Shown here: positions 8,794 through 25,832 of the stretch, in pieces
Layout: each line of letters starts with the position of its first letter
Position numbering within the stretch: position 1 is the first letter of the stretch
NCBI GenBank assembly: GCA_029941235.1
Contig: JAPYQM010000009.1
Span: 23,910-58,396 of the forward strand
Source of the DNA: Myxococcota bacterium
GTDB lineage: Bacteria; Myxococcota_A; UBA9160; UBA4427
Direction of reading: 5' to 3'
Length of the DNA stretch: 34,487 nt
Program-made: the position numbers and the translations under genes
The notes under the pieces: model-generated
What the model was told of the DNA's origin: nothing
Database searches by the model: none
Seen by the model: the letters and a program-made list of their open reading frames with translations, nothing else

Positions 8794-11700
8794 TTAGCGA
8801 TAGTCGTGACCCGCCGGGAGCGGTTGCCCGCCGCCCGACTCTTCGGGTTCCGCTTCGGTTTCTTTGGGCGCCGTTGTCTGCAGGTTGAGGGGCGCGAGAT
8901 GGCGGAGCTTGACGTGGATCACCCCATCGACGCTTTGTAGAGGACCCCGGATCTCCACCAGGCTCGCGGCATTCAGGGGAACCCGGAAGCGCTCGGCCTG
9001 GTCGGGGGTCACGATGGCGTTGGAGAGGCCTGTTTCATCCTCGAGGGTGAGAAAAAGAAACCCCTTTGCCGAGCCCGGCCTCTGGCGCACGATGATGTGC
9101 CCCGCTGTATGGACCGGAGTGCCGTGGGGGGTGCGCGCCAATTCGGCGGCGGTGAGCACGCCGCGGGCCCGTAGCGCTGGCCGCAGGTGCGCCATGATCT
9201 GGGGCCCCGGGGTGAGTCCCGAAAGCCTGTAGTCGGCCAGGGTTTCCTCCAGGGCCGAGAGCCCGGCGAGGCCGGGTTCGGCGGGGTCCCGGGACCCCTG
9301 ACCGGCGAAGAGCGATGTGCCATCGCGTTCGATGCCGGCGACTTGCCAAAGGGCGGCCCGGCGCTCTTTCGGTGTGGCCTCGAGTTCGGCTAGGGCGCCG
9401 AGTTCCGCCAGGGCATCGAGTTCGGCAGCACTCAGGGGCACGCGCTTCACGAGGTCGGCCAGATTGCCAAAGGGCGCCTCGTCGCGTTCGGCCTCGAGCC
9501 AGTTGCCCGTGGCCTCTCGAAGCCCCTTGGTGAAACGAAGCCCCAGGCGAACCGCGGGGGGGCTGTCCGGGCTTGCCCCGGGCTGGAGCGTGCAGCGCCA
9601 GCGCGATGCGGTGACATCGATGGCGCGCACCTCCACTCCGTGGCGTTGGGCGTCCTTGATCAGGGTGGCGGGACTGTAGAACCCCATGGGCCAGGCATTC
9701 AGCAGCCCGGTGAGAAAGGCTGCGGGGTGGTGGCATTTCAGGTAGGCCGACGCGTAGGCGATAAGCGCGAAGGAGGCCGAGTGCGATTCGGGAAATCCGT
9801 AGAGCGCAAAGGCGGTGACCTGCTGGACGATTTCCTCCTGGGCCGCGGGGGAGATTCCCTTGCGCGTCATGCCGGCCCGGAGCCGCTGATCGATGGTGTG
9901 CATGCGCGCAGTCGAGCGCTTGAACCCCATGGCGCGCCGTAATTCTTCGGCCTCGCCGCCGCTAAACCCCGCCGCCGTCATGGCCACCCGAAGCAATTGT
10001 TCCTGGAAGATCGGGATGCCCAGGGTTCGCTTCAGAATGGGTTCGAGGCAGGGATGGGGGTAGCGCACGGGTTCTCGTCCGGCGCGTCGGTTCAGGTAGG
10101 GATGGACCATCTGGCCCACGATGGGTCCGGGGCGGATGATGGCGATCTCCACGACCAGGTCGTAGAAGCAGCGGGGCTTCATGCGGGGCAGGGTGGCCAT
10201 CTGGGCCCGGCTTTCGATCTGGAAGACCCCCACCGTATCGGCGCGGCAGAGCATTGCGTAGGTTTCGGGGTCGTCCGGGGGCAGGTGGGCGAGGTCGATT
10301 TTGCGGCCCTCATGGCGTGCGATGAGGGGAAGGGTTTCCTCGAGGGCGGCCAACATGCCGAGCCCCAGGAGATCGATCTTGATGATGCCGAGATCCGTGC
10401 AGTCCTCTTTGTCCCATTGGACGATACGGCGGCCCGCCATCCGGGCGGGTTCGATGGGGACGACTTCGTCCAGGCGCCCGGCGGCGATCACGATGCCGCC
10501 GCTGTGTTGACCCAGGTGCCGGGGCAAACCCTGGATGTCGGAGACGAGTTCGATCAAGCGGGCGATTCGGGGGGCGGTGGGGTCGACGCCCGCCTCCCTC
10601 ATGCGTTCCGCAAGGGCGCCCGGGTCCTGTTGGGCGCCGGGCTGGAGATCGAACCGGGAGAGTCGGCGGGCCAGGGTGTCGACGGTTTCCGGTGCCAGGC
10701 CCACCACCTTGCCCATTTCACGCACCGCCATGCGGGTGCGGTAGGTGATGACGTTGGCCGTCATGGCCGCGCCCTCTTGGCCGTATTTCGCAAAGACGTA
10801 TTGGATCACGCGCTCGCGTTGATCCCCGGATGGCAGGTCGAGGTCGATATCCGGCCATTCGCCGCGCTCTTCGGAGAGAAATCGCTCGAAGAGCAGTTCC
10901 ATTCCCACCGGATCCACCGCCGTGATGCCCAGGGCATAACAGACCGCGCTATTGGCCGCGGAGCCGCGTCCCTGGCAGAGGATGCCCTCGCGCCGGGCAA
11001 AGTCGGCGATGTCGTGGACGATGAGGAAATAACCGTCGAGATCGAGTTTCTCGATGAGGGCGAGTTCGTGTTCGATTTGGGCGCGAACCCGGGGCGGCAG
11101 GGGCGCGCCATAGCGTTGGCGCGCACCGCGGTGGGTGAGGGCGTGCAGATGTCGGGGCTGGCTTTCGCCCGGGGGCAGGGGGTACTCGGGAAAGCGGTAG
11201 TCGAGGTCGCCCAGGTCGAAGCGGCAACGCTCGGCGATGGTTCGGGTGGCGGCCAGCCATTGGGGACGATCGGCGAAGCGGCGTGCCATTTCTTCGGGAG
11301 CGTGAAGAGTGCGCTCCCCGTTGGCGAGCAGCTTACGGCCCGCCTGATCAAGAGTCGTCTTCCAGCGCAGGCAGGTCAGGGCGTCGAGCAGTACACGTCC
11401 GCGAGGTTCGGCACACCGCACATCCCCGCTGGCCACCACCGGCACCCCGGCGGACTCGGCCAGAGCCACGGCCCGACGCGCCATGGCCTCGTGGTTTCGA
11501 TCGAGGTGCCGGGACACGTCCACCCAGAGTCGCTCCGGCTCCCGGCCGAAGATCCCTTGGGCTCGGTCGAGGGTTGCCGGGGTGAGGCGCTCGTCTCCGC
11601 GCAGCAACAGGGTCAGCCCCCGGGCATTTTCCTCGAGCTGATTCCAGTCGACCCGACATTCGCGCTTGTCGCGTCCCCGATGGCCCAGGGTGAGTAGCCG

Positions 11701-12003
11701 AGAGAGCCGTCGCCAACCCTCGGGCGATTCGACGAGAAGCAAAAGAGGAGTGGACGGGTCCCCGCGCTCTTCTTCGGGCTCGAGCTCGATTTCGGCTCCG
11801 AGAATCGCCCGCACCCCGGCGCGCCGGGCGGCCTGGTGAAAGCGCGGGATGCCGTACACCCCACCCCGGTCGGCCAGCGCAAGGGCGGGATAGTCCAGGG
11901 CGCTGGCGCGTTCGACGAGATCTTCGGGCTGAGAGGCGCCTTCGAGAAACGAGAACGCGCTGCGCGCGCGCAATTCGATGTACGCAGGGGGTTTGGGGGG
12001 CAT
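8794..12003 (-). CDS. dnaE2: Error-prone DNA polymerase DnaE2 (ImuC)
   Basis: SAFSFLEGASQPE PHP start, QGRGSAANSAVCY, PDIDLD catalytic motif, PRHLGQHSGG, FQIESRAQM, YGFPESH, RQRPGSAKG OB fold, C-terminal GHDYR (SRDFH-like). Confidence 0.96.
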   Translation of the reverse strand: MPPKPPAYIELRARSAFSFLEGASQPEDLVERASALDYPALALADRGGVYGIPRFHQAARRAGVRAILGAEIELEPEEERGDPSTPLLLLVESPEGWRRLSRLLTLGHRGRDKRECRVDWNQLEENARGLTLLLRGDERLTPATLDRAQGIFGREPERLWVDVSRHLDRNHEAMARRAVALAESAGVPVVASGDVRCAEPRGRVLLDALTCLRWKTTLDQAGRKLLANGERTLHAPEEMARRFADRPQWLAATRTIAERCRFDLGDLDYRFPEYPLPPGESQPRHLHALTHRGARQRYGAPLPPRVRAQIEHELALIEKLDLDGYFLIVHDIADFARREGILCQGRGSAANSAVCYALGITAVDPVGMELLFERFLSEERGEWPDIDLDLPSGDQRERVIQYVFAKYGQEGAAMTANVITYRTRMAVREMGKVVGLAPETVDTLARRLSRFDLQPGAQQDPGALAERMREAGVDPTAPRIARLIELVSDIQGLPRHLGQHSGGIVIAAGRLDEVVPIEPARMAGRRIVQWDKEDCTDLGIIKIDLLGLGMLAALEETLPLIARHEGRKIDLAHLPPDDPETYAMLCRADTVGVFQIESRAQMATLPRMKPRCFYDLVVEIAIIRPGPIVGQMVHPYLNRRAGREPVRYPHPCLEPILKRTLGIPIFQEQLLRVAMTAAGFSGGEAEELRRAMGFKRSTARMHTIDQRLRAGMTRKGISPAAQEEIVQQVTAFALYGFPESHSASFALIAYASAYLKCHHPAAFLTGLLNAWPMGFYSPATLIKDAQRHGVEVRAIDVTASRWRCTLQPGASPDSPPAVRLGLRFTKGLREATGNWLEAERDEAPFGNLADLVKRVPLSAAELDALAELGALAELEATPKERRAALWQVAGIERDGTSLFAGQGSRDPAEPGLAGLSALEETLADYRLSGLTPGPQIMAHLRPALRARGVLTAAELARTPHGTPVHTAGHIIVRQRPGSAKGFLFLTLEDETGLSNAIVTPDQAERFRVPLNAASLVEIRGPLQSVDGVIHVKLRHLAPLNLQTTAPKETEAEPEESGGGQPLPAGHDYR

Positions 12004-12038
12004 GTTTCGAGTTTCGCCTTTTGTTCGCCTTTTGTCAT
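12004..12038 (-). promoter_or_regulatory. Putative dnaE2 promoter with direct-repeat operator
   Basis: Coding strand reads ATGACA-aaaggcgaacaaaaggc(17 nt)-GAAACT-cgaaac-ATG; perfect 11-bp tandem (CAAAAGGCGAA)x2. Confidence 0.7.
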
Positions 12039-12141
12039 GGGCTAGGCAGGCGATCGGTACGAATTCGCGAAAGGTTTCGGAGGCTGCCTGTAGGGAATTT
12101 CCCTTGAGGGTAAGGATTCATCGGGTATGCTCGCTGCCGCT

Positions 12142-12525
12142 ATGGGCCTGACAGTTTTCTTGGTGGATGACGAGGGCCAGATTTTGCGCCTATTGACTCG
12201 GGTTTTAACCCGGGCCGGCCACACGGTGATCACCGCAGAGGACGGCGACGAGGCCTTGAATGTTTGGGCCCAACACGCCGATGCCATCGATGTGATGCTG
12301 CTCGACGTGGTGATCCCTCCGCACGGGGGGGTGGAGGTGCTGGACGAAGTGTTGGAACGCCGTCCGGATCTTCCCTTTATGCTGATCAGCGGCGAGCAAA
12401 TCGATGAGAGTTTGCGAGCTCGAGTCGAAGCCGCGCAGGGAAGCTTTCTCCGCAAGCCCTTCCATCCGGACACGGTCCTCGAGGCCATCGCTCAGGCCAC
12501 TTCGAACGACTCGGCCTCGGCTTGA
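12142..12525 (+). CDS. Single-domain response regulator (receiver only)
   Basis: VFLVDDE acidic pocket, LLDVVIP phospho-Asp, ISG, LRKPF; no output domain. Alternative start at 12127. Confidence 0.9.
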   Translation: MGLTVFLVDDEGQILRLLTRVLTRAGHTVITAEDGDEALNVWAQHADAIDVMLLDVVIPPHGGVEVLDEVLERRPDLPFMLISGEQIDESLRARVEAAQGSFLRKPFHPDTVLEAIAQATSNDSASA

Positions 12526-12604
12526 GTCGTCTTCGAAGCCTTTAAAGCTTCCAGCTCGGCGTGGGCGACCGGGTTTCGGCGCTTTGGGGCGTTAGAATTG
12601 TGGT

Positions 12605-13894
12605 TTGACTCCGCCCGCACATCGTACTCGGCCCAGCCCGGCTCGCTGTATTTTGCACGCGGACATGGATGCCTTTTACGCCTCGGTGGAGCAGCGCGAT
12701 GATCCCAAGCTTCGGGGGCGACCCGTGGCGGTGGGCGGGGACGGGCCGCGAGGGGTGGTGGCGGCGGCGAGCTACGAGGCGCGGCGCTTTGGCGTGCGCT
12801 CGGCCATGCCGAGTTTCGAAGCGCGGCGGCTCTGCCCCGATCTCGTGTTCCTGCGCGGTGATCCCCGGAAATATTCCCGGGAATCCCGGCGCATTTTCGA
12901 GATCTTTGCCGAGTTCTCGCCTTCGGTGGAGGGCCTCTCCCTCGACGAGGCCTTCATCGACCTGACGGGAAGTCGGCGGCTCCTGGGCGCTCCGGCCGAC
13001 GTAGGGGCTCGGTTGCGGGTCCGGGTACGTGAGGAGACCGGTTTGCCGGTCTCGGTGGGGATCGCCCCGGTCAAGATGGTCGCGAAGATTGCGAGTGCGG
13101 CCGCCAAGCCCGATGGCCTGTTGGAGGTGGAGCCCGAGGGCGTGCGCGAATTTCTCGCCCCCCTTCCCGTCCGTCGAATCTGGGGGGTGGGGCCGGTGGC
13201 CGAACGGCGACTGGTGGAACACGGGTTTCGGACTCTGGACGATCTGGCCCGCGCCGATCCGCAGACGATCGAGCAACTCTTCGGCGCTTGGGGGAGGGCG
13301 TTGGCCGAGTTGGCTCGGGGCGATGATTTGCGCGAAGTGGAGGCCCGAGGCGCTGCGCTTTCCTATAGCGAAGAGAATACGTTTCGGGACGATGTGGAGG
13401 ATCGCGCGCTGCTCGATGCGACGATTCTGACTCACGCCGAATCGGTGGCTCGGCGGCTTCGCAACGATGGCGTGCGCGGGCGCACGGTGGTGCTGAAATG
13501 GCGCGAGTCTCGGCGCCGGAGCGCCGGTCCCCGGGGCTACCCCTTGCATACCCGACAGCTCACGTTGTTTGAAGCCACCGACGACGGTGCGGAGATCGCC
13601 CGGGAGGCGCGGCGCTTGTTGGCCGAGTCCGGCCCCGGAGAGCCGGTGCGCCTGTTGGGAGTGGGGGTGTCGGGGATCGAGGAATCGGGTTTCGCGCAGC
13701 TCTCGCTCTTTGCCGATGGGGAGACGAAAGACGCCAACCCCCAGGAGCGGGCCGCGCTCAATCGTGCGCTCGATGAACTCGAGGCGCGTTTTGGCGCCGG
13801 GACGGTGGTGCGCGCCAGTCAGGGGCGGGCCGACAAGGCGGGGCTCTCGCTCCAGATCAAACGCGGCGAAGATCCCGGGTCGGCGGATCGCTGA
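12605..13894 (+). CDS. dinB: DNA polymerase IV (Y family)
   Basis: ILHADMDAFYASVEQ, ASYEAR, SLDEAFID catalytic motifs, AKIAS..KPDG, and a QLSLF clamp-binding motif. The TTG start is uncertain. Confidence 0.94.
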   Translation: MTPPAHRTRPSPARCILHADMDAFYASVEQRDDPKLRGRPVAVGGDGPRGVVAAASYEARRFGVRSAMPSFEARRLCPDLVFLRGDPRKYSRESRRIFEIFAEFSPSVEGLSLDEAFIDLTGSRRLLGAPADVGARLRVRVREETGLPVSVGIAPVKMVAKIASAAAKPDGLLEVEPEGVREFLAPLPVRRIWGVGPVAERRLVEHGFRTLDDLARADPQTIEQLFGAWGRALAELARGDDLREVEARGAALSYSEENTFRDDVEDRALLDATILTHAESVARRLRNDGVRGRTVVLKWRESRRRSAGPRGYPLHTRQLTLFEATDDGAEIAREARRLLAESGPGEPVRLLGVGVSGIEESGFAQLSLFADGETKDANPQERAALNRALDELEARFGAGTVVRASQGRADKAGLSLQIKRGEDPGSADR

Positions 13895-13895
13895 T

Positions 13896-15431
13896 TCAGT
13901 CGTAGATCCCATCGATCTGCCAGGCGCGTTTGATCCAGTCGTAACAGAGCCGAACCACGCTGCCGTCGCTGATCTGGATGTCGAAGTGATCGAGGGCAAA
14001 GCGTTCGTTTTCGGACCACCAATAGCCCGTTGTTCGCCAGGGGCCGGCCACTCTCACGACATCGCCCCGGGCCGCCGCGCTGCGAACGAAAGAGGGTTTG
14101 CCTCCAATCACCCGGACTTCGGCGCTCAGGGGCGGGCGCAACGCCCGCAGGGCGGGCAGGGCGGGGCGGGGTGGGGACGCAGGAAGCCGAGGCTTTTCGG
14201 GCTTGGGGGCTGCCGTTGGGGCGAAGGGTCCCATCCCAAAACCGCGGGGATTGGGGTGGTCGAGGACCTCGGGGGCCCCTACTCGCCCCTCGCCGCAGAG
14301 GACCTCGAGTTCGCTCAGGGTTCGCCCGAGGGCCGCGGGGTCGGGGCCGCGAGGAAGGAAGAGGTCGAGTTGGTCGCTGGGTACGGGCACGCCTTCGCTC
14401 GCGATGGCGATGCGCACGATGGGCGCATGGGGGGGATGCTCGCCCAGGGTAAGGGTGGTGACGCGGAGCAAGACCCGTAGATCGAGGGTGGGGGCGGCGA
14501 GCCCGATGCGTCGAGCATCCTGACCTCCGCCCTCGAGGCCCAGATGCAGATCCAGGGCTTCGCACGCCATCCCGCGCAGAGCCAGACGTTCGGAGAGCCG
14601 GGAGATCAGCCCGCGCAAGACAAAGCCCAGAGGCTCGAGGTGATCGATGGGCGCTTCGAGATCCATGGCTTCTTCGAGGTGCCGGGCGGGGGGTTGGGCC
14701 AAGGGGGGGCTGGGGTCCACCCCCTGGGCCCGGGCGACCAAGGCCAATGCACCCGGGCCGAGCCTGTGGGCGAGGCCGCGCCGGGGCAACCGAAGAAGAT
14801 CGCGCACGGTGTGGATGCCCAGCCGGGTGAGGGCTTGGGCGAGCCGGTCGTCGGGATCGAAAAGGTCGAGGGAAAGGGGGGCGAGGAAGTGGCTCTCCGC
14901 TTCGGGAGTCAGGCAATGCAGCGGGGGGCCACCGCTCATCCGGTGACGGGCGGCCAAGAGCGCGGTGGATCGGGAAGACGCGATCCCCACCACGCCCGGC
15001 AGTCCCTGGCGTTCCGCCCGAGCCAACAAGGCCGAAGCGAAAGCGGGCTCGGAGGAGAATAAATTCGCGATCCCCGATGCATCGAGAAAGACATGGCCCT
15101 CGGCAAAGAAGAGCCCGGATGTGCGGGGTGCGCTTTCGGCTCGGGGCGAAAGGGAAAGAGCAATGTCGAGCAGGGTCGCCCGGGCGGCGCGATCCAGGGC
15201 CGGGGAGGCGATGCGTACCCGGACCTCCGGGCAGGCGGCCCGCGCCTGGGCGACGGAGTGGGCGATCCGGACTCCCATGGCCTGGGCGGAGGGGGAAGCG
15301 GCGATCACATCGGCCCGGGCTCCGGTTCCCGAGGCCACCACCAGGGGCGCATCGGCAAGTTCGGGGTGGGCGCGGAGTTCGGCGCGAAGGGGCAGGTCGG
15401 GGATCAGGAGGCAGGCGATTCGGGGGGGCAT
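13896..15431 (-). CDS. imuB: ImuB, catalytically inactive Y-family polymerase scaffold
   Basis: RIACLLIPDLPL N-terminus lacking the catalytic Asp motif, VFLDASG, QLDLF clamp motif, C-terminal GPWRTTGYWW...W.IDGIYD. Start chosen at MPPRIACL. Confidence 0.9.
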   Translation of the reverse strand: MPPRIACLLIPDLPLRAELRAHPELADAPLVVASGTGARADVIAASPSAQAMGVRIAHSVAQARAACPEVRVRIASPALDRAARATLLDIALSLSPRAESAPRTSGLFFAEGHVFLDASGIANLFSSEPAFASALLARAERQGLPGVVGIASSRSTALLAARHRMSGGPPLHCLTPEAESHFLAPLSLDLFDPDDRLAQALTRLGIHTVRDLLRLPRRGLAHRLGPGALALVARAQGVDPSPPLAQPPARHLEEAMDLEAPIDHLEPLGFVLRGLISRLSERLALRGMACEALDLHLGLEGGGQDARRIGLAAPTLDLRVLLRVTTLTLGEHPPHAPIVRIAIASEGVPVPSDQLDLFLPRGPDPAALGRTLSELEVLCGEGRVGAPEVLDHPNPRGFGMGPFAPTAAPKPEKPRLPASPPRPALPALRALRPPLSAEVRVIGGKPSFVRSAAARGDVVRVAGPWRTTGYWWSENERFALDHFDIQISDGSVVRLCYDWIKRAWQIDGIYD

Positions 15432-15450
15432 TTTGCTTGGGGTTGCCCGT

Positions 15451-16284
15451 TTAGCCGGAGGCGTTTTTGACTCGGAAGGCACCGCCGAGTCGGACAAGGG
15501 CAGACCGGCCGTGGCCTCCACTCGGATGACGAACCAGCACCGCCCGGGTTTCGATTTCTTCGAGCAGGGGCGGGGATCCGCTGAAGCGAGCCCGGGCGGG
15601 CTGCAATTCCAAGACGATTCGGGCCTCGGTCCCCGCTTGGCGCTGGTGGCTGAGCACGATCAGAGCGGTTCGTGTGGCCGCCGCTTGCCGGGCCAGGCGG
15701 GTCCAGATGGAGGCGGGGATTTCGGACCGGGCCCGCGCCGAGGATGGGGAATTCGGTGCGATATCGAGGATGACCAAGGGCAACCCCTCGGTTTCCAGCA
15801 ATCGCTCGGTACACCGCAGGGCATCGCGCCCGGGTCCGACTCGGGCCCAGAGCACCCGGCGCAAATCGACTCCCGCAGTCTGGGCGGAGGATGGATCGAA
15901 AGCATCGGGGGTGTCGATCACGGCCACCCGCTCGCCCCGGTTTTCAACCCCGCCCGTCGTGGTGGTCGCGAGCAAGGCAAAGAGGAGGGATGTTCGCCCG
16001 GAGGAAGCGGGTCCGGTGATTTCGCCCAGATCTCCGCGTGCAAAGCCGCCTCCGAGGAGTTCGTCGATGGCGTCGAGCCCGCTCGCGTGGCGGTGTGGAT
16101 CGCCTTCGCGTTTCTGGGCGCTCTGGAGGGCATGGCCGGGTTGCAGTCGACCGCCGAGATCCCTCAGCAATGCGTCGATGCGTTCGCGGGGCGGTCCTGC
16201 TGCCGTCTGCAACCCCCGGGATTCGGTGGATGCGGCCAGAACTTTCGGGGAGGGATTGCGAGCGGGCAGGGGACCAGCGGGCAT
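15451..16284 (-). CDS. imuA: ImuA, RecA-like mutagenesis protein
   Basis: SGLDAIDELLGGGFARGDLGEITGPASSGRTSL (degenerate Walker A), IDTPDAFDP..A..AGVDLRRVLW, W.RLARQA; directly upstream of imuB. Confidence 0.85.
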   Translation of the reverse strand: MPAGPLPARNPSPKVLAASTESRGLQTAAGPPRERIDALLRDLGGRLQPGHALQSAQKREGDPHRHASGLDAIDELLGGGFARGDLGEITGPASSGRTSLLFALLATTTTGGVENRGERVAVIDTPDAFDPSSAQTAGVDLRRVLWARVGPGRDALRCTERLLETEGLPLVILDIAPNSPSSARARSEIPASIWTRLARQAAATRTALIVLSHQRQAGTEARIVLELQPARARFSGSPPLLEEIETRAVLVRHPSGGHGRSALVRLGGAFRVKNASG

Positions 16285-16319
16285 CCCTTTACTTTCGCTT
16301 TTTATTCGCCTTCGTTCAA
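16285..16319 (-). promoter_or_regulatory. Putative imuAB promoter with direct-repeat operator
   Basis: Coding strand reads TTGAAC-gaaggcgaataaaaagc(17 nt)-GAAAGT-aaaggg-ATG; the 20-mer is 18/20 identical to the element upstream of dnaE2. Confidence 0.7.
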
Positions 16320-16363
16320 GGCCCTTGGGTGGCCGGGGCCATGAAAAATCCCCGAACCGGCCG

Positions 16364-17011
16364 TCAATTCGGCTCGGGGGGGTCCACCAGCCGGGTGCAG
16401 CCGTCCTTGATCTCGACGCGCCCCTCGGCGATCAGCCGAATTGCCTGGGGGACCAGCCGTCGCTCGATGGCGGTGACCCGAGCCGCGAGGGTGTTCGGGG
16501 TATCGCCGGGTTCCACGGGGACCGACTCCTGCAGCAGGATGGGGCCGTGATCGTATTCGTCGTCGGTGAAATGCACCGTGGCCCCGGTCAGCTTGACCCC
16601 GGCGGCGAGCACCGCTTCGTAGACCCGCTGGCCGTAGAAGCCGGTGCCCGAAAAGGCAGGGATCAGCGCGGGGTGAACGTTGAGCGCGCGACCTTCGTAG
16701 CGGCCGCGCAGTTGGAAGAGGGAGAGGAAACCGAGCAGCGCCACGAGTTCGACCTCGTAGGGAGCCAGGGCCGCGTGCAGGGCATCGTTGAAGGCGTCCG
16801 GGTCCGCGTGTTCCTTGCGCGGGATCGCGATGGCCGGAATGCCGCGCCGCCGCGCCCGTTCGAGCCCGTAGGCGTTGGCCTTACTCGAGATCACCACCAC
16901 GACTTCACCCGGGACATCGCCGGATTCGATGTGCTCGAGCAGGTTTTCTAGGCTCGTCCCATTGCCCGAGAGCAGAACCGCGATGCGCAGCCGGGCCGGG
17001 GCCGCGCTCAT
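16364..17011 (-). CDS. purN: Phosphoribosylglycinamide formyltransferase
   Basis: AVLLSGNGTSL, NVHPALIPAF, TGATVHF..DEYDHGPI; 4-nt ATGA overlap with metF. Confidence 0.95.
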   Translation of the reverse strand: MSAAPARLRIAVLLSGNGTSLENLLEHIESGDVPGEVVVVISSKANAYGLERARRRGIPAIAIPRKEHADPDAFNDALHAALAPYEVELVALLGFLSLFQLRGRYEGRALNVHPALIPAFSGTGFYGQRVYEAVLAAGVKLTGATVHFTDDEYDHGPILLQESVPVEPGDTPNTLAARVTAIERRLVPQAIRLIAEGRVEIKDGCTRLVDPPEPN

Positions 17012-25220: not shown

Positions 25221-25832
25221 TCAAATGTCGCGTAGCGAAGCCCGGGCGAATTCGGCCTGCAGCGCCTCGTAGTCGTTGGCCACAGGGAACTGCGGAAATT
25301 CGTCGATGACATTCTGGGGCGGGCAGAAGAGAATTCCGGATTCGGCCTGATCGAGCATGGACGTGTCGTTGTAGGAGTCCCCGGTGGCGATGCAGCGGTA
25401 TTTCAATTGTTGGAACGCGCGCACCGATTGACGCTTGGGGTCGGCTTGGCGAAGTGCATAATCAGCAACCCTTCCTCGTTGGTCGATGACCAGCTTGTGG
25501 CAGAGCAATGTCGGCCAACCGAGTTGTCGCATGAAGGGCTCGGCGAATTCATAAAAGGTATCGGAGAGGATGACCACCTGGAAGCGCTCGCGTAGCCAGG
25601 AAAGGCAGGCCGTGGCGCCGTCCAAAGGCTTCATGGTCGCGATGACCTCTTGTATGTCGCGAATGCCAAGATTGTGTTCGTCTAGAATGGCCAGTCTTTG
25701 GCGCATGAGTTGGTCGTAATCAGGAATGTCGCGGGTGGTCGCCCGCAATGCCTCGATTCCGGTTCGCTCGGCCACATTGATCCAGACCTCGGGAATCAGA
25801 ACACCCTCAAGATCGAGGCAGGCAATCTCCAC
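25221..25832 (-). CDS. thrH: Bifunctional phosphoserine phosphatase / homoserine phosphotransferase (HAD)
   Basis: ACLDLEGVLIPEVW, TTRDIPDYDQLM, ILSDTFYEF, GDSYNDTSM; GTG start with GGAGG RBS. Confidence 0.93.
   Translation of the reverse strand: MEIACLDLEGVLIPEVWINVAERTGIEALRATTRDIPDYDQLMRQRLAILDEHNLGIRDIQEVIATMKPLDGATACLSWLRERFQVVILSDTFYEFAEPFMRQLGWPTLLCHKLVIDQRGRVADYALRQADPKRQSVRAFQQLKYRCIATGDSYNDTSMLDQAESGILFCPPQNVIDEFPQFPVANDYEALQAEFARASLRDI

Follow-up and report, generated by a model that had tools for sequence, protein, structure and literature searches.

In the published literature, the LexA box of Alphaproteobacteria is given as a direct repeat, GTTC-N7-GTTC, with a period of 11 base pairs (bp), and that of Gram-positive bacteria as GAAC-N4-GTTC. 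The LexA box of Acidobacterium capsulatum is described as the alphaproteobacterial repeat. A LexA box of the alphaproteobacterial kind in this species is reportedly the subject of a paper by Mazon et al. (2006, Microbiology 152:1109). For Balneolaeota, Kilic et al. 2020 (PMC7739468) describe a direct-repeat LexA motif with a small regulon that is centred on translesion polymerases and includes recA. Here, we analysed a stretch of 34,487 nucleotides (nt; the window) from an uncultured member of the Myxococcota, class UBA9160 (contig JAPYQM010000009.1, positions 23,910-58,396), in which a direct repeat with the core GCGAA-N6-GCGAA precedes both dnaE2 and imuA. Sequence comparisons indicate that this element is very probably a LexA operator of translesion polymerase genes. 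It is found in the lexA promoter, as in autoregulation, and in the promoters of damage-response genes and their orthologues, where it overlaps the putative core promoter.

The two boxes in the window and the promoter-like hexamers around them are as follows.

12012..12031, minus strand: LexA-type direct-repeat box in the dnaE2 promoter, AAGGCGAACAAAAGGCGAAA, with the core GCGAA-N6-GCGAA at 12013-12028
12033..12038, minus strand: -35-like hexamer ATGACA of dnaE2, at a place where most relatives outside the genus have cTTGAC
12010..12015, minus strand: -10-like hexamer GAAACT of dnaE2, sharing bases with the second half-site and separated from the ATG by 6 nt
16293..16312, minus strand: LexA-type direct-repeat box in the imuA promoter, AAGGCGAATAAAAAGCGAAA, with the core at 16294-16309
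16314..16319, minus strand: -35-like hexamer TTGAAC of imuA, kept as TTGA(A/C)C 4 nt upstream of the box in relatives
16291..16296, minus strand: -10-like hexamer GAAAGT of imuA, which ends 6 nt before the ATG

The boxes are identical at 18 of 20 positions, and 8 nt separate each of them from its start codon (ATG at 12003..12001 for dnaE2 and at 16284..16282 for imuA, both on the minus strand). At their half-sites, they read GAAC/GAAA and GAAT/GAAA. At both genes, the hexamers are 17 nt apart, and the box fills this spacer and overlaps the -10. An earlier annotation, made by a model from the letters alone (the sequence-only reading), had reported these boxes, distances and hexamers, and the coordinates are confirmed at both promoters. 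When the 20-mer consensus was searched with up to two mismatches, the two boxes were its sole matches in the window, against 0.00 expected from 100 shuffles, and chance is thereby ruled out for the box in its extended form. Specificity is lower for the bare core, which has four matches in the window against 0.33 expected. Its two further matches, at 14310-14325 (minus strand) and 25235-25250 (plus strand), are exact, lie within coding sequence and have GC-rich spacers; they are taken as chance, and neither reaches 14.8, the smallest score listed by the matrix scan described below.

The genome (3.9 Mb, 255 contigs, 61% GC) holds one lexA gene, its sole match to TIGR00498 (204 bits, cut-off 111). 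Its product, of 200 amino acids (aa), has retained an A-G cleavage site (VAAGYP) as well as the catalytic serine (in GDSM) and lysine (in TLKRF), and is predicted from these motifs to be self-cleaving. Upstream of lexA, TTGACT runs straight into TTCGC-N6-TTCGC, the box as read on the opposite strand (site 1). A second box, in forward orientation (site 2), starts 35 nt beyond site 1, downstream of the putative promoter, and both sites lie 100-150 nt upstream of the gene. The 365 nt that separate lexA from its divergent neighbour also contain a perfect 9-bp inverted repeat, TTGGCAGTC ... GACTGCCAA, at C2:18693-18719.

For the genome-wide search, the count of bare cores was dropped as a test and replaced by a weight matrix that takes in the flanks and the spacer, built from 145 distinct sites upstream of the lexA and imuA genes of relatives, with the genome's own sites left out. 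The four highest scores in the whole genome were the following.

Rank 1, score 29.2: lexA site 1
Rank 2, score 27.9: imuA box
Rank 3, score 26.6: dnaE2 box
Rank 4, score 24.8: lexA site 2

The next match scored 21.2. The two next-best ones, C49:21099 and C51:22362, were rejected as operators, as they lie within coding sequence. The crude caller of open reading frames used here, based on GC content at third codon positions (GC3), over-extended some frames upstream, that of lexA among them, and the lexA sites were checked by hand. A box at one mismatch also precedes each of two copies of a membrane-protein gene, within near-identical stretches of separate contigs (C186:164-179 and C30:35795-35810); duplication of the region or a variant of the assembly is the probable explanation, rather than an operator.

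The ImuA query found a match in 61 of the 61 relatives searched, some at the level of RecA only, and the counts for imuA given here refer to the 30 best loci, the organism's own included. In 30/30, the imuA start is preceded by cTTGAC-N4-AGGCGAA-N6-(G/A)CGAAA(A/G)T-N6-ATG/GTG, with an A-rich N6 in the repeat. The same arrangement stands before dnaE2 in 30/30 loci (again with the own locus), drawn from the genus, from the rest of its family and from further families within the order, and the dnaE2 sites, which were outside the training set of the matrix, scored 19.3-33.1. The distances from the box to the -35 and to the start codon are fixed in all 60 imuA and dnaE2 promoters, and the flanking sequence diverges at these loci while the box is kept. 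Upstream of lexA, the strict core with at most one mismatch occurs in 27 of 27 loci of the class (the organism's own, 9/9 in the family, 13/13 in the order and 4/4 in the class), and 26 of the 27 reach a matrix score of 14. In other Myxococcota classes, the strict core was found at the same mismatch limit upstream of 4 of 49 lexA genes, which look like chance matches in GC-rich sequence, and no matrix site of at least 12 was found there (0/49). Neither of two alphaproteobacterial lexA loci had such a site (0/2, both scoring below 0), and among control regions upstream of cinA-recA only 2/30 did. These results refute the idea that the resemblance of the boxes reflects chance or a functionless remnant of a local duplication. 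It could draw on the abundance of the bare core in this GC-rich genome, at 37 copies no more frequent than other spacings, but it would have to accommodate an extended box expected 0.00 times in shuffles, its retention in 30/30 imuA and 30/30 dnaE2 promoters with diverging flanks, and its absence from control promoters; we give it practically no credence.

The position of the box within the promoters bears on what kind of site it is. It overlaps the -10 and the spacer at imuA and dnaE2, supplying most of the -10 GAAA(A/G)T there, and abuts the -35 at lexA and at lhr, an additional target described below, if the promoters are assigned correctly. A reading of the repeat as a part of the promoter, such as an alternative sigma factor element or an activator site, would account for the fixed distance to the -35 and the start codon in 60/60 promoters and for the -10-like GAAA(A/G)T that the repeat contributes. 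The orientation of the box varies, however. It is forward at imuA and dnaE2 and inverted relative to transcription at lexA site 1 and lhr, and site 2 of lexA comes after the putative promoter. An orientation-dependent element would not behave in this way, and a TTGAC -35 at 17 nt is an ordinary housekeeping arrangement. As the box is found in either direction with respect to transcription, we favour a repressor site and consider a promoter element quite improbable.

In relatives, the consensus at imuA and dnaE2 continues as GAAA(A/G)T-N6-ATG/GTG, and no Shine-Dalgarno sequence lies between the -10 and the start codon of either gene. Since the -10 ends 6 nt before the start codon and this signal is lacking, the transcripts of imuA and dnaE2 likely start at or next to the A of the ATG, and leaderless mRNAs are predicted. 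A repressor operator placed inside an apparently leaderless promoter, as proposed for both genes, would be a compact design. Both genes open with ATG-CCC-CC (Met-Pro-Pro; 16284-16268 for imuA and 12001-11985 for dnaE2, minus strand), and this C-rich start, kept in most orthologues of the two, may be relevant to the translation of leaderless mRNAs.

The LexA of the window organism is 57-93% identical to LexA proteins of its class, 50-53% to those of Acidobacteriota, 33-43% to those of other Myxococcota, with one at 52%, and 38% to those of two Alphaproteobacteria; the best named match in a plasmid collection is a Firmicute LexA (43% identity). In a maximum-likelihood tree of 110 proteins, the 27 in-class LexA together with the 52% protein form the sister group of 27 acidobacterial LexA (Shimodaira-Hasegawa-like approximate likelihood-ratio test, SH-aLRT, 95), apart from 47 of 49 other myxobacterial LexA. 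Alphaproteobacterial LexA forms a clade separate from the window type, and the deeper relation between the two is left unresolved by the tree. The approximately unbiased (AU) test, applied to 59 of the proteins after removal of two very long branches, rejected a single clade of all Myxococcota LexA (p-AU 0.00065). In its recognition helix, the LexA of the window organism has SVATVHKH, and that of Acidobacteriota has SLATVHKH; elsewhere the helix is SKSGVHRL (Alphaproteobacteria), SSSTVHGH (Firmicutes) or STNGVNDH (other Myxococcota). The 52% protein is one of three LexA copies in a genome of another Myxococcota class (L168, genome G099); it branches beside the in-class clade and has the helix SLATVHRH, and no box occurs in its 400-nt upstream region.

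The acidobacterial promoters show the same design. All 25 acidobacterial lexA loci with enough upstream sequence carry TTCGC-N6-TTCGC immediately after TTGAC and before a TA-rich -10. In 4/4 acidobacterial imuA loci, the sole site of at least 14 within about 3.5 kb is just upstream of imuA on the same strand, and one of these boxes is nearly identical to the imuA box of the window. In a wider sample of 28 acidobacterial lexA loci, from which two unpublished genomes had been dropped, a site of at least 14 was present in 9 of the 11 loci with the ATVHKH helix against 4 of the 17 with other helices. In the loci compared here, whether a promoter has the box depends on which type of LexA the genome encodes, and this holds across two phyla.

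This covariation also bears on whether LexA itself is the protein that binds. A different repressor that also controls lexA, for example a second damage-response regulator co-occurring with this LexA clade, would gain some room from the place of recA outside the predicted regulon, which leaves space for a second, LexA-independent damage response. Box presence, however, tracks the sequence type of LexA in two phyla, the box sits in the lexA promoter, a classic sign of autoregulation, and the sole regulator-like gene beside the cassette encodes a receiver-only protein without a DNA-binding domain. The reported link between an acidobacterial LexA and a box of the alphaproteobacterial kind also speaks against it. 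We therefore regard such a repressor as unlikely and retain LexA as the candidate regulator.

The regulon inferred from these sites is small. It would comprise lexA, imuAB and dnaE2, with lhr in part of the family and recA outside. The lhr site is the following.

C63:1728-1743, 54 nt upstream of C63:1801-6252: box of the lhr gene for a 1484-aa Lhr-like helicase, in the lexA-like arrangement TTGAAG, T, TTCGC-N6-TTCGC

It is kept in 14 of 29 loci and in 7/7 within the genus. A site upstream of cinA-recA (C6:5109-5124, score 20.6) was not counted in the regulon, as only 2 of 30 loci have one. It lies between a ruvX-like gene and cinA-recA, just upstream of a TTGACG -35, and cinA and recA appear to form an operon.

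Several results weigh against a LexA operator of this consensus. The bare core is not enriched genome-wide, with 37 copies at N6 compared with 65 at N4, 41 at N5, 57 at N7 and 55 at N8. Three simulated Markov genomes gave 0-4 matrix matches of at least 22, compared with 4 observed; because the simulations reach such numbers, the score alone is not decisive, and the argument is where the matches lie. High scores at the lexA and imuA promoters arise partly by construction, the matrix having been trained on orthologues of these promoters. One lexA locus within the order scored below 14, and a site of at least 14 was missing from two of the 11 acidobacterial loci that share the recognition helix. 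The LexA tree is a quick one with few named outgroups, and the clade put to the AU test was named after the first tree had been viewed. At the promoters, the -10 hexamers match TATAAT at only 3 of 6 positions, and a simple sigma-70 scan, at the threshold of the tool, called no promoter at the dnaE2 or imuA site, a silence that fits such weak hexamers. Finally, recA, a usual SOS gene, has no conserved box in the region upstream of cinA-recA (2/30).

Set against the evidence as a whole, the proposal of the sequence-only reading that a divergent LexA or another regulator binds the repeat as a DNA-damage operator comes out as very probable for LexA, supported by the sites upstream of lexA, the conservation in orthologues and the co-occurrence with one LexA type. 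Its description of the element as uncharacterised and lineage-specific does not hold in kind, since the same consensus stands before lexA and imuA in Acidobacteriota and the direct-repeat class is published. A matrix scan of the kind that it had suggested placed lexA, imuA and dnaE2 in the top four matches of the genome, and the box is conserved at their orthologues, but not at recA (2/30). It had also noted that the element does not match GAAC-N7-GAAC exactly, and this is borne out by the conserved GCGAA and by the base after GAA, which is mostly A.

The genes and other features around the two boxes in the window are listed below.

8794..12003, minus strand: dnaE2 (imuC), error-prone DNA polymerase of 1069 aa (Pfam PHP, DNA_pol3_alpha, finger, HHH_6)
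12127..12525, plus strand: receiver-only response regulator, divergent from dnaE2 (Pfam Response_reg, 6.9e-19; high GC3 in frame)
12605..13894, plus strand: dinB, DNA polymerase IV, convergent with imuB (Pfam IMS, IMS_HHH, IMS_C)
13896..15521, minus strand: imuB, Y-family, IMS domain (Pfam IMS, 2.2e-16)
15451..16284, minus strand: imuA, RecA-like, 277 aa (Pfam RecA, 1.8e-12)
16352..16372, minus strand: terminator-like hairpin after the upstream formyltransferase gene, separating that gene from the imuA promoter

The cassette contains all three expected kinds of protein by Pfam and NCBIfam: a RecA-like ImuA, a Y-family ImuB and a DnaE2 polymerase. The DnaE2 product matches NF004225 ('error-prone DNA polymerase') with 1264 bits (cut-off 939) and the DinB product NF002882 with 392 bits (cut-off 389). 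ImuA matches ImuA_translesion weakly, at 45 bits and under the cut-off of 150, and the matches of ImuB to DNA polymerase IV families in NCBIfam are weak and well under cut-off. The true start of imuB may be some codons downstream of 15521. Pfam finds no DNA-binding domain in the response regulator at 12127..12525. The hairpin after the formyltransferase gene supports a separate promoter for imuA. GC3 marks the plus strand as coding in the interval from imuB to dnaE2, which contains the receiver gene and dinB. Because these opposite-strand genes intervene, dnaE2 is not co-transcribed with imuA-imuB, and this separation accounts for the box that dnaE2 has of its own; the locus is thus not a single imuA-imuB-dnaE2 operon under one operator. 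The gap between imuB and dnaE2, from locus coordinates, is at least 1.5 kb in the relatives compared. The three translesion polymerase loci are clustered, and in 24 of 30 loci of relatives dnaE2 has a divergent receiver gene, dinB or both no more than 1.5 kb away.

The mechanism that we propose is that a single LexA repressor would bind as a dimer to both GCGAA half-sites, which stand in tandem at a distance of 11 bp and so on the same face of the helix. The bound protein would block RNA polymerase at the weak sigma-70-type promoters of imuA and dnaE2. After DNA damage, self-cleavage of LexA stimulated by RecA would free the promoters of imuA, dnaE2 and lexA, the last with its two boxes, and the mRNA made after release of LexA from imuA and dnaE2 would be leaderless.

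The origin of the system can be addressed only from identities on small samples for ImuA and DnaE2, not from trees. Proteins 40-45% identical to the ImuA of the window organism were found in 3 of 5 acidobacterial genomes. In all 5 complete genomes from other Myxococcota classes, and by tblastn in plasmids, ImuA gave RecA-level matches only. DnaE2 is 53-54% identical to acidobacterial DnaE2 and 44-48% identical to that of other Myxococcota. We raise tentatively, with more doubt than confidence, the scenario that a module consisting of LexA with its own promoter and operator and an ImuA-ImuB-DnaE2 set with the same operator was exchanged between Acidobacteriota and an ancestor of this marine Myxococcota class. 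It would have replaced the usual myxobacterial LexA and its motif and left a regulon of lexA, three translesion polymerase loci and the Lhr helicase, with leaderless promoters and without recA, and the true specificity of this LexA would be TTCGC-N6-TTCGC, in another register than the GTTC-N7-GTTC to which direct-repeat LexA boxes are usually assigned.

For this uncultured marine class of Myxococcota, which lacks an experimental system, the results provide a LexA box that can be tested and a predicted minimal SOS regulon. A box and helix common to Acidobacteriota and not to other Myxococcota add a case to the known pattern of LexA motif turnover and of possible lateral transfer of lexA. With the consensus GCGAA-N6-GCGAA, regulons would be predicted better both in Acidobacteriota and in the Myxococcota studied here, and the general understanding of how the SOS response works is unchanged.

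Among the described boxes, that of Gram-positive bacteria shares a GAAC/CGAA-like half-site with the element; it is a palindrome with 4-nt spacing, whereas the repeat here is tandem with an 11-bp period. The Balneolaeota motif is likewise a LexA-type direct repeat with a small regulon centred on translesion polymerases, but it is AT-rich and unrelated in sequence, belongs to another LexA lineage and has a regulon that includes recA. Like the alphaproteobacterial box, the element is a direct repeat and not a palindrome, with an 11-bp period and a TTC/GAA core; it too is found at lexA and at cassettes of the imuA-imuB-dnaE2 type, and the same LexA-operator working is predicted. It differs in that the conserved bases are shifted by 1-2 positions, with TTCGC invariant and the preceding base mostly T. 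On the other strand, the base after GAA is mostly A, with C in the minority, and the half-site is therefore not GTTC/GAAC. In the two lexA promoters from Alphaproteobacteria, the repeats are GTTC or GAAC and lack the GC, and the LexA here, about 38% identical to the alphaproteobacterial protein and with another recognition helix, falls outside the alphaproteobacterial clade.

The closest likeness is to Acidobacteriota, with the same consensus and promoter arrangement at lexA and imuA, a sister clade of LexA and a near-identical recognition helix; the difference is the host, here a class of Myxococcota. In the acidobacterial sites examined, the GC prefix never changes and the base at the place of the C in GAAC does, which suggests GCGAA-N6-GCGAA as a better consensus for this LexA clade than GAAC-N7-GAAC. 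In a limited literature collection, we found no paper with this consensus or with a LexA box for uncultured Myxococcota. The element is thus known in kind, as a probable LexA operator of the direct-repeat class, and its novelty lies in the lineage of the host, in a refined consensus and in the conserved design of a promoter predicted to be leaderless.

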